A stretch of 57,842 bases of DNA, from positions 1 to 57,842 of the IMG/VR virus record IMGVR_UViG_3300038856_000076. One strand, written 5' to 3'. Made by a program: the position numbers and the translations under genes. This document shows, in pieces, positions 36,944 to 38,404 of the stretch. The notes beneath the pieces are model-generated. The model did not search any database. It was not told the DNA's origin and saw only the letters and a program-made list of their open reading frames with translations. How positions within the stretch are numbered: the first letter of the stretch is position 1; every line of letters starts with the position of its first letter. Origin of the DNA: a virus.

Positions 36944-37428
36944 TGTTACAGCAGTTATACACAGTATCGTTGCTTATAAAACGCGATGATAAACCTGTTT
37001 TTCCGTGGACAGGCTTTTTTGGATATAAGCCTTGGAAAGAGAAAATCTGTGAAGCCCTGAGATCAGAAGGCCATGAATATGCTGCTAGAGTCGTCGAATT
37101 ATGGGATGGCAAGACGGATTCGATTTATTTTGCAAACAATCTCATACTTGGGACAATCAAAATCGAAGAAGGTAAGAAATTGTACGACCAGAGTTATGAT
37201 ATCCATCTGACTCATACCAATCGACAAATTGTCGCACAGTGGCAAGATGATGAAGGCAATATTATCTGTGACACAAACAAATGTCCCACAGGATATGGCG
37301 TCACTGTATTAGAAGCAATTGGCAGCTTAGTATTGGGCACCATCAATACACATTTAATCGAAAATTCCAACGATATTCTGTCGCAACACTTTTCAATTTT
37401 TGTACCAAAATACACGGGGCATGCATGA
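36943..37428 (+). CDS. hypothetical protein
   Basis: 161-aa ORF. Its stop overlaps the next start (ATGA). Confidence 0.45.
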   Translation: MLQQLYTVSLLIKRDDKPVFPWTGFFGYKPWKEKICEALRSEGHEYAARVVELWDGKTDSIYFANNLILGTIKIEEGKKLYDQSYDIHLTHTNRQIVAQWQDDEGNIICDTNKCPTGYGVTVLEAIGSLVLGTINTHLIENSNDILSQHFSIFVPKYTGHA

Positions 37429-37856
37429 AGATTTACATCGCCGGCCCGTTATTTACCCAAGCAGAACGTCAATGGAATGCTAAACTTGCATCCGCACTAC
37501 GTCAACGATGCACGGCTGAAATTGCTTTGCCACAAGACTTTTGTCGGGGGACAACATCTTCTAAGGTAATGTTTTCTCGTTGCCTTTCTGAATTGACTAC
37601 ATCTCAAGCAGTAGTTCTCAATGCTGATGGTGCTGATGTTGATGCAGGAAGTGCATTTGAAGCGGGTGTTGCTCACCAATTAGGGATTCAATTGGTTAGT
37701 TATCGTACAGACCTTCGTCGGGCTGGTGATTCAGAGTTTGATGTGAATCTTATGCTAGCTCATGCAGGTGCATTCTTGAATTGTCATGGCGACACAGTTG
37801 ATACAGTTGCTTCTAAACTTCTAAAAGAAATCAGAACAAATTACATTGGATACTAA
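37425..37856 (+). CDS. nucleoside 2-deoxyribosyltransferase-like (NDT/DNPH1 superfamily) protein
   Basis: The start is set at MKIYIAGPLF, the hallmark N-terminal motif of the family. A DAGSAFEAGVA segment corresponds to the family's DxGTxxExG motif. Length is 143 aa. Confidence 0.6.
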   Translation: MKIYIAGPLFTQAERQWNAKLASALRQRCTAEIALPQDFCRGTTSSKVMFSRCLSELTTSQAVVLNADGADVDAGSAFEAGVAHQLGIQLVSYRTDLRRAGDSEFDVNLMLAHAGAFLNCHGDTVDTVASKLLKEIRTNYIGY

Positions 37857-38404
37857 TGCTCGAATTGATTGAATACCCGCACCCATTTCTTCGGTATGTC
37901 TGCAAGCCTTTGAAAAAGGTGGACGGATCGATCAAGAATATCATCACCGAGATGATTCAGGTAATGCACGAAGAGAAGGGTAATGGTCTTGCTGCTCCTC
38001 AAGTAGGTCTGCCCTTTCGATTGATCGTGGCAACTTACGACAAGGTTGATTTTGCGTTTATCAACCCTATCATCACACGCATTCGAGGCTCAAAGCTAGT
38101 CAAAGGTAAGGAAGGTTGTCTCAGTTTTCCCGGCCTATTCTTGCCAGTTCTGAGGTCTAACAAAATCAAATTCACTGCATGGACGCCAACAGGCGACACT
38201 GTAGATGAAGTTGTCTCAGGTGACTTTTCTCGTGTACTACAACATGAGGTTGACCATCTTGATGGCACGCTAATTATCGACAAGATTGGGAATGATCTAC
38301 GTATACAGAAGAAAGTCAAGCCATACATCGACTATGTAACCGAGCATGCGGATTATCCGCATTTGAATCTTGACCCTGACTTATTGGAGACCTACTGTGC
38401 GTAG
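37856..38404 (+). CDS. def: peptide deformylase
   Basis: All three PDF motifs are present: GNGLAAPQVG (motif I), EGCLSFPG (motif II) and QHEVDHLDG (motif III, HExxH). The start overlaps the upstream stop (TAATG). Confidence 0.8.
   Translation: MLELIEYPHPFLRYVCKPLKKVDGSIKNIITEMIQVMHEEKGNGLAAPQVGLPFRLIVATYDKVDFAFINPIITRIRGSKLVKGKEGCLSFPGLFLPVLRSNKIKFTAWTPTGDTVDEVVSGDFSRVLQHEVDHLDGTLIIDKIGNDLRIQKKVKPYIDYVTEHADYPHLNLDPDLLETYCA

Follow-up and report, generated by a model that had tools for sequence, protein, structure and literature searches.

A putative nucleoside 2-deoxyribosyltransferase with a cysteine at the gatekeeper position and a full-length peptide deformylase are encoded head-to-tail by an uncultured tailed phage

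The IMG/VR record IMGVR_UViG_3300038856_000076, a stretch of 57,842 nucleotides analysed here over its whole length (hereafter the window), carries two adjacent genes on its plus strand, one for a putative nucleoside 2-deoxyribosyltransferase (NDT; 37425-37856, 143 amino acids (aa)) and the other for a peptide deformylase (PDF; 37856-38404, 182 aa). With moderate confidence, we regard the two as independent auxiliary genes of cellular origin, which stand head-to-tail in an accessory-gene operon of an uncultured tailed phage. Each of them is a fresh addition to a known enzyme family. The neighbourhood of the two genes is ancestral to a single phage clade of five lineages, and nothing points to a mechanistic link between the two. 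Both open reading frames (ORFs) were found where the original prediction, which had been made from the sequence alone, placed them: the NDT protein begins with MKIYIAGPLF and bears DAGSAFEAGVA at residues 73-83, and the TAA stop codon of NDT (37854-37856) and the ATG of PDF (37856-37858) have one A in common, forming a TAATG overlap at 37854-37858 on the plus strand.

The NDT protein matched the Pfam families PF05014 (59.3 bits against a cut-off of 28.8, E 5e-16) and PF15891 (35.7 bits, cut-off 30). PHROGs agrees with Pfam on the assignments of both NDT and PDF, and no NCBIfam model matched NDT. A longer version of the gene, starting at 37281 (191-aa ORF), was rejected, as homologues and Pfam align from the Met at 37425. 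The best matches among the sequences in PDB were the purine 2'-deoxyribosyltransferase of Enterococcus faecalis (EfPDT, 7m5h) and the enzyme of Desulfotalea psychrophila (DpNDT, 7o62), followed by CtNDT, BpNDT, LhPDT and the trypanosomatid enzymes; the profile-to-PDB E-values were 2e-25 for EfPDT, 2.6e-21 for DpNDT and 2e-13 for CtNDT. Both 7M5H and 7O62 are tetrameric transferases (PMC12372993). The AlphaFold2 (AF2) model of the protein (pLDDT 84.4) has the alpha/beta fold of NDTs, and the top 19 matches in Foldseek were all transferases, with a probability of 1.00 to 7m5h, 7o62, 6evs and the entries beginning with 8pq and 1s2. Besides being the best matches in both sequence and fold, EfPDT and DpNDT have the motifs Y-x-A-G-PLF (N-terminal), LPQ, DG-x-x-D-x-G-x-x-E-x-G, TD-x-R and NLM in common with the window NDT, as well as the tetramer-contact residues F10, E14 and R98, which are conserved and equivalent to F22, E26 and R119 of DpNDT and to F13/R104 of AvNRT (TDYR motif). 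The roles of these intersubunit Phe, Glu and Arg (TD-x-R) contacts have been described elsewhere (PMC12372993, PMC7308715). Judged by its sequence, the window NDT belongs to the tetrameric EfPDT/DpNDT/AvNRT branch. It differs from EfPDT and DpNDT in that the identity is only ~30% and ~24%, respectively, and in that it is shorter (143 aa), phage-encoded and equipped with a clade-specific C-terminal G-Y. The fusion partners of NDT domains in the relatives, namely tandem NDT, DUF7768, one HD_4 and unannotated N-termini, were uninformative on function.

Active-site residues were mapped by ungapped alignment to the sequences of crystal structures, and residue counts were made on the 164 closest of the 868 representatives recovered by an exhaustive search at E <= 1e-3. 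The enzyme of Chroococcidiopsis thermalis (CtNDT; 8PQP-8PQT, 8QC0), ~20% identical to the window NDT, serves as the mechanistic template, in which Y7, D82, E88, D111, N118 and M120 correspond to Y4, D73, E79, D102, N108 and M110, respectively. Tyr4 (codon 37434-37436), aligned also to EfPDT Y5 and DpNDT Y16, is Tyr in 160 of the 164 relatives. The N-terminal Tyr orients the nucleophile, and Phe at that site is associated with a preference for ribonucleosides (PMC10913048, PMC7308715); the presence of Tyr rather than Phe thus predicts that the window NDT prefers deoxyribose. The stretch D73-A-G-S-A-F-E79 (37641-37661, plus strand) contains the Asp that binds the 5'-OH and the Glu that acts as the nucleophile in catalysis. 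These two residues align to EfPDT D80/E86, and likewise to LlNDT D92 and DpNDT E100, with Glu in 163 and Asp in 161 of the relatives. The catalytic Glu, the lack of which was to overturn the original prediction, is therefore in place. D102, conserved as well, is the counterpart of CtNDT D111, which helps the leaving base. The NLM motif (N108-L-M110, 37746-37754, plus strand) has Asn in 159 and Met in 157 of the 164 relatives; this motif serves the active site of the neighbouring subunit, its Asn binding the 5'-OH (PMC10913048, PMC12372993, PMC7308715). In hydrolases of deoxynucleoside monophosphates (dNMPs) and in the phage enzyme DmtZ, by contrast, small uncharged residues replace the Asp and Asn 5'-OH binders, fitting a phosphate (PMC12884076). 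As D73 and N108 are both kept, the window protein is predicted to be of the nucleoside type and not of the dNMP-hydrolase type. The original assignment to an NDT/DNPH1 superfamily can thus be narrowed: the NDT side is borne out by Pfam, fold and residues, whereas the DNPH1 side fits neither the retained 5'-OH binders nor the nearest matches, which are true transferases.

In all five lineages of the clade, the last two residues of NDT are G-Y, and the copy in the window has an insertion of five residues directly before them (G-Y at 37848-37853); pLDDT falls below 50 for the last three residues. In the hexameric NDTs of Lactobacillus, the carboxylate of the C-terminal Tyr reaches a neighbouring active site.

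We noticed that the original prediction had overlooked one feature of the active site and needs correcting in this respect: the second catalytic-site Asp is Cys53 here (codon TGC, 37581-37583, plus strand). Cys53 aligns ungapped to CtNDT D62, EfPDT D60 and DpNDT D74, and the Asp or Asn that faces the nucleophile in characterised enzymes (LlNDT D72, CtNDT D62, TbNDT N53) is absent from the window NDT. This position is known as the 'gatekeeper' and is Asn53 in TbNDT (PMC12645435). Among the 164 relatives, position 53 is occupied by Cys in 93 sequences, by Asp in 27, by Asn in 25 and by Leu in nine, so that Cys53 defines a large subclade, to which four of the five lineages of the window's phage clade conform; no Cys was found at the gatekeeper position in any of the characterised NDTs compared. 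The D62N variant of CtNDT keeps ~50% of the wild-type efficiency with more hydrolysis (PMC10913048), so that Cys53 probably does not inactivate the enzyme but could change its specificity. By analogy with that variant, Cys53 should not abolish catalysis, and it may affect how tolerant the enzyme is of the sugar or how far it hydrolyses rather than transfers. The outgroup NDT closest to that of the window, with 52% identity and also with Cys53, is encoded on a 113-kb contig deposited in a genome assembly (GCA_009612775.1, WBZY01000070.1), where its surroundings are phage-like, an array of small ORFs that includes NUDIX and AAA genes. Besides NDT, no protein on that contig is common with the window.

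The second gene of the pair encodes, by all sequence criteria applied here, a catalytically complete, full-length and cell-like type-1 peptide deformylase. The protein matched PF01327 with 137.6 bits (cut-off 22.8, E 3.5e-40) and passed both the TIGR00079 equivalog model (117.6 vs 103.95 bits) and NF001159 (129.9 vs 125). It matched 79 PDFs in PDB, 1lme being the best, and its nearest solved relatives are the type-1B enzymes of Thermotoga, the Plasmodium apicoplast and the Arabidopsis chloroplast. All three catalytic motifs claimed in the original prediction are present on the plus strand: GNGLAAPQ at residues 42-49 (37979-38002), in which G42, G44, L45 and Q49 are invariant in an alignment of 30 sequences; EGCLS, within EGCLSFP, at residues 86-90 (38111-38125), with the metal ligand Cys88; and QHEVDH at residues 129-134 (38240-38257), with the ligands His130 and His134 and the catalytic Glu131. 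The latter two motifs are invariant in the same alignment. The AF2 model (pLDDT 93.3) further indicates a C-terminal domain (38297-38401, plus strand) composed of a helix at residues 148-163 (pLDDT ~85), a loop and a terminal helix at residues 174-180 with a conserved LLETYC motif. The protein aligns to E. coli PDF up to residue 158 of the 168 in that chain, and runs ~37 residues beyond the core. Its E-x-Y-C ending (38375-38401) is conserved in five of five lineages, and occurs also in a few cellular PDFs of ~192-195 aa (P0171, P0181).

Cellular PDFs dock on the ribosome via their C-terminal helix. The solved phage PDFs of S-SSM7 (3UWA) and Vp16 (5MTC) have no C-terminal domain (PMC3660681, PMC5591237), and neither do most marine viral PDFs (PMC3660681). 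Like the window PDF, the two solved proteins are phage-encoded, type-1B-like and furnished with the three motifs; unlike them, the window PDF continues into the tail of ~37 residues, in which a 16-residue helix is predicted and which closes with the conserved E-x-Y-C, as seen in the ~192-aa PDFs of Planctomycetota type. The nearest non-phage relatives are ~192-aa cellular PDFs with about 40-47% identity. Among the genome matches listed, the best six belong to Planctomycetota (Pirellula, Planctomycetia), with Gemmataceae shortly after. These matches only hint at the donor or the host, and as the G+C (GC) content of the phage, 44%, is low for Planctomycetota, the identity of the host is uncertain. 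The statement that phage PDFs are known mainly from marine cyanophages is outdated, as 161 deposited phage records matched the window PDF, including phages of Vibrio, Synechococcus, Brevundimonas, Caulobacter and Acinetobacter.

The order of NDT followed by PDF was found in five diverged lineages, i.e., the window and the loci designated L003, L006, L031 and L033. Between lineages, NDT is 63-64% and PDF 55-58% identical, and the two are the best-conserved proteins of the block in which they lie, whose other members near the pair are 27-50% identical or absent. Synonymous sites are saturated across the five lineages (proportion of differences, pS, 0.65-0.90) and the corresponding values for nonsynonymous sites (pN) are only 0.10-0.38, a pattern that indicates purifying selection on both genes. 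The pair does not differ from its surroundings in GC content, which argues that neither NDT nor PDF is a recent import; a recent horizontal island was rejected on the same ground. Further viral contigs with NDT genes were retrieved with an alignment query, the single NDT sequence having retrieved nothing; no PDF was found near NDT in 15 such viral loci or in the two closest outgroup loci, and more distant NDT homologues reside in ordinary cellular contexts.

The junction between the two genes varies within the clade. A 1-nt overlap was found in three of the five lineages (TAATG in the window and L006, TGATG in L003). In the other two, an HNH/NUMOD4 homing-endonuclease gene sits precisely between NDT and PDF (L031:9483-10004 and L033:1384-1893), and these two genes are homologues with 49% identity. 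The inserted gene, ~0.5 kb in length, abuts or overlaps both neighbours, so that the chain of tight junctions is kept. The window phage thus represents the endonuclease-free allele at this junction. A third HNH gene is present in L031 at 8563-9066, just upstream of NDT. In L033, moreover, NDT (983-1384) is still a full-length ORF and has lost its catalytic residues, with the changes E79A, Y4F, PLF to PNH and NLM to STL. The pN of this copy is 0.35-0.38 as opposed to 0.22-0.25 among the others, whereas PDF in the same lineage is intact and as conserved as elsewhere. The overlap itself is commonplace, as stop/start overlaps were found in 24 of the 45 adjacent same-strand gene pairs of the block. 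A core Shine-Dalgarno sequence precedes only ~24% of the block genes, and none was found in front of the window PDF; TAATG may therefore give termination-reinitiation. We regard the overlap as normal phage gene packing rather than a requirement, with termination-reinitiation a possibility. The original description of the pair as translationally coupled is correct as to the overlap and overstated as to the coupling.

How NDT would work can be proposed from its residues. Glu79, oriented by Tyr4, would attack C1' of a 2'-deoxynucleoside, and the base would depart with the aid of Asp102 from the partner subunit, leaving a covalent deoxyribosyl-enzyme. Resolution of this intermediate with a second base would amount to exchange, and with water to hydrolysis. 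A free 5'-OH would be held by Asp73 and Asn108, making nucleosides, not nucleotides, the expected substrates. We infer that NDT most likely contributes to the rebalancing or salvage of deoxynucleosides, probably purines, released by breakdown of host DNA, and that PDF most likely supplies extra capacity to deformylate proteins when phage protein synthesis surges. A theme of the purine pool is supported by the purine specificity of EfPDT, the closest solved homologue, and by a bona fide GMP reductase gene in L003 (6498-7499; NF003470, 484.6 bits against a cut-off of 397), which lies 3.6 kb downstream of the NDT-PDF pair; no counterpart of this gene was found in the window. On other viral contigs with this NDT subfamily, the neighbours include RNR, Tmk (thymidylate kinase), dCMP deaminase and Pol A.

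Several points weigh against this proposal. The enzyme functions of NDT and PDF are predictions from sequence, and the substrate and the reaction outcome of the window NDT are extrapolated, there being no characterised NDT with a Cys gatekeeper. Salvage is, besides, a generic role and, for phage NDTs of this branch, a presumed one. Transglycosylation with deoxyadenosine (dA), deoxyguanosine (dG) or dZ, the deoxynucleoside of 2-aminoadenine (Z), was not observed for two NDTs taken from unmodified contigs (bioRxiv 10.1101/2025.10.22.683976), and some members of the family may thus have other substrates. No deoxynucleoside kinase that would return the products of NDT to dNTPs was seen in the window; such a kinase could come from the host or from elsewhere on the contig. 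Finally, a gene order that persists in five lineages, even after insertion of an endonuclease gene, could still reflect a selective benefit of co-expression.

Four alternative functions of NDT, together with a direct connection between the two genes, have to be considered. One is a non-canonical base pathway, e.g., for Z-containing DNA, in which NDT would swap adenine for Z and dA would be depleted, with the participation of the protein encoded at 3218-3907 (plus strand) of the window. Contigs with dZ are enriched in PF05014 domains, one of which, NDT-M2, is a purine transferase preferring dA as the donor (bioRxiv 10.1101/2025.10.22.683976). In the Z-genome phage Wayne, a stand-alone DUF5664 protein is an active dATP/dGTP diphosphatase, and DmtZ of the NDT superfamily acts in Z-genome phages (PMC12884076). 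Two IMG/VR loci, L015 and L016, carry a PurZ-like adenylosuccinate-synthetase homologue (L015:3581-4684, L016:5410-6525) directly beside an NDT of this subfamily, and a family-A DNA polymerase was also found, in L016; these loci are probable Z-genome modules. Like NDT-M2, the NDTs of both loci are PF05014 proteins encoded on phage contigs; those of L015 and L016 match the window NDT with 34% identity over its full length and have all of its motifs. The window itself encodes a HAD phosphatase, and its protein at 3218-3907 does contain the dNTP-diphosphohydrolase-N-like domain noted originally (PF18909, i.e., DUF5664 or dGTP_diPhyd_N; E 4e-25). Nevertheless, the protein joins this domain to a NUMOD4 DNA-binding motif, which resembles that of the clade's HNH homing endonucleases with 31-33% identity, and the gene lies 34 kb away from NDT. 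The PurZ-linked NDTs have Asn53 and branch with EfPDT and DpNDT, apart from the Cys53 group that includes the window clade, in a neighbour-joining tree computed without support values. No gene for PurZ (PF00709), a dUTPase-like protein (Dut) or an HD protein (DatZ) was found among the 71 ORFs of the window or in 10 kb upstream of it, and NDT is decayed in one of the lineages. On the 68 kb examined out of a 129.5-kb contig, we consider a Z pathway unlikely for these reasons. The idea that the nucleotide pool is manipulated or that non-canonical bases are involved is plausible in principle, as DUF5664 and NDT-family enzymes act in Z-genome phages (PMC12884076; bioRxiv 10.1101/2025.10.22.683976), but the 68 kb lend it no specific support, and NDT is not of the PurZ-linked type. 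Somewhat akin is the idea, which also strikes us as improbable, that the Cys53 subclade, widespread in phage-like contigs, has a distinct chemistry or substrate instead of plain deoxynucleoside transfer. The substrate might be a modified purine or a ribo- or 3'-deoxynucleoside, or catalysis might be thiol-assisted, and NDT, perhaps with the DUF5664 protein and the HAD phosphatase, might reshape the purine deoxynucleoside pool toward a non-canonical base or away from host defence. If this is the case, the retention of NDT beside a ribosome-docking PDF would be the hallmark of an early 'takeover' operon.

Quite improbable in our view is an N-glycosidase of the DNPH1/DmtZ kind, which would act on dNMPs and destroy a specific deoxynucleotide. 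DmtZ of the Z-phages Ghobes and Wayne, a phage-encoded precedent (PMC12884076), and mammalian DNPH1/Rcl are of the same superfamily as the window NDT and have the catalytic Glu/Tyr pair in common with it; loss of the gatekeeper carboxylate in CtNDT D62N increased hydrolysis (PMC10913048), and DNPH1 structures are among the fold matches. On the other hand, DNPH1/Rcl appeared in the Foldseek list only from rank 20, below all transferases and with 11-14% identity, and DNPH1 was absent from the profile search of PDB sequences at E <= 0.01. DmtZ and DNPH1 lack the Asp and Asn that bind 5'-OH, both of which the window protein keeps, and DmtZ has Asn as its gatekeeper (PMC12884076); among the phage records, neither DmtZ nor any Gordonia or Arthrobacter Z-phage protein had detectable similarity to the window NDT at E <= 1e-5. 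A functional link between NDT and PDF, be it a complex or an obligatory stoichiometric co-translation enforced by the overlap, would account for the order kept in five lineages, the 1-nt overlap in three, the missing Shine-Dalgarno sequence and the status of the pair as the two best-conserved proteins of the block. The insertion of a 0.5-kb endonuclease gene between the two in L031 and L033, the loss of the nucleophile from the L033 NDT with PDF unchanged, and the routine occurrence of overlaps across the block argue against any mechanistic link; no PDF was found near any other NDT locus inspected, viral or cellular, and we know of no biochemical connection between the two reactions. Such a link is thus very unlikely. 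Extremely doubtful is a glycosidase of NAD+ or signalling nucleotides directed against host immunity, as in retron effectors and TIR/SLOG-type enzymes. NDT-like domains are known as retron effectors, the NDTs of Lactococcus phages adjoin PnuC nicotinamide-riboside transporters, and the Cys53 subclade is without a biochemically characterised member. The active site is nevertheless that of a deoxynucleoside transferase, no NAD-related gene was seen near NDT, and no PADLOC defence model matched NDT, PDF, the ORF immediately upstream of them or the HAD protein.

The pair is embedded in a long plus-strand block of small accessory ORFs (~34.4-57.7 kb). Immediately upstream of NDT, a 161-aa orphan ORF (36943-37428, plus strand), which the original prediction did not mention, shares the 4 nt ATGA with the beginning of NDT and is probably the first gene of the transcription unit that includes NDT and PDF. 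This ORF has no match in Pfam, PHROG, NCBIfam or PADLOC, and no homologue was found in the related lineages. Upstream of it, we found a sigma-70-like promoter match at 36840-36868 (plus strand; TTGACA-17-TATACT, 11/12), which is a consensus match only. Promoter-like sites were modestly enriched in number (32 vs 20.9 +/- 5 expected), and terminator matches, at the level of consensus only, occurred at the shuffled expectation.

The window as a whole is 57.8 kb of a tailed phage with genes for a gpA-type large terminase, a portal, a P22-type coat protein, a tape measure and a DUF5906 primase-like protein, and none of 50,697 deposited phages is related to it at the DNA level. Proteins identical to NDT and PDF are also encoded on a 129.5-kb contig in ENA (ERZ27291567 k141_81811, 129,510 bp), of which the window covers approximately positions 71-129 kb; the 57.8-kb window and 10 kb upstream, 68 kb in total, were examined for context genes. 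Just upstream of the window (L029:8596-9606; 69.8-70.9 kb of the contig), we found a gene for a ParB_N/HTH_ParB protein that is divergent from the primase-like gene and may point to a partition function or a ParB-like nuclease.

Other genes of the window deserve mention in their own right. An 819-aa protein (42221-44680, plus strand) has the major vault protein domains MVP_shoulder (E 1.7e-25) and Vault_3 (E 4e-11), which are of eukaryotic type; a vault-protein homologue is unusual in a phage. A separate Band_7/SPFH protein is encoded at 5246-5806 on the minus strand. Three paralogues of 250-279 aa (39224-39976, 49500-50330 and 51269-52108, all on the plus strand) each gave a weak match to the Rieske [2Fe-2S] domain, and L031 has a homologue of them, again with a weak Rieske match. 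A trypsin-like serine protease (35777-36469, plus strand; PF13365, E 4e-21), whose hydrophobic N-terminus resembles a signal peptide, is encoded three genes upstream of NDT, and L031 carries it as well. The HAD protein mentioned above, a HAD_SAK_2 phosphatase-family member (52520-53212, plus strand; E 1e-18), and a YunG-family protein (56181-56576, plus strand; E 5e-21) belong to the accessory block that also contains the pair. The HAD phosphatase could in principle feed nucleosides to NDT.

Both genes are additions to the auxiliary genes known from phages other than marine cyanophages, and the window PDF looks Planctomycetota-derived. The gatekeeper position of NDTs is a target of engineering for the biocatalysis of nucleoside drugs, which makes a natural Cys variant a cheap and informative enzyme to study. 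The full-length phage PDF bears on the question of why most phage PDFs lost their C-terminal helix. For phage genomes in general, the junctions interrupted by endonuclease genes and the decayed NDT caution against reading a stop/start overlap as a sign of functional linkage.

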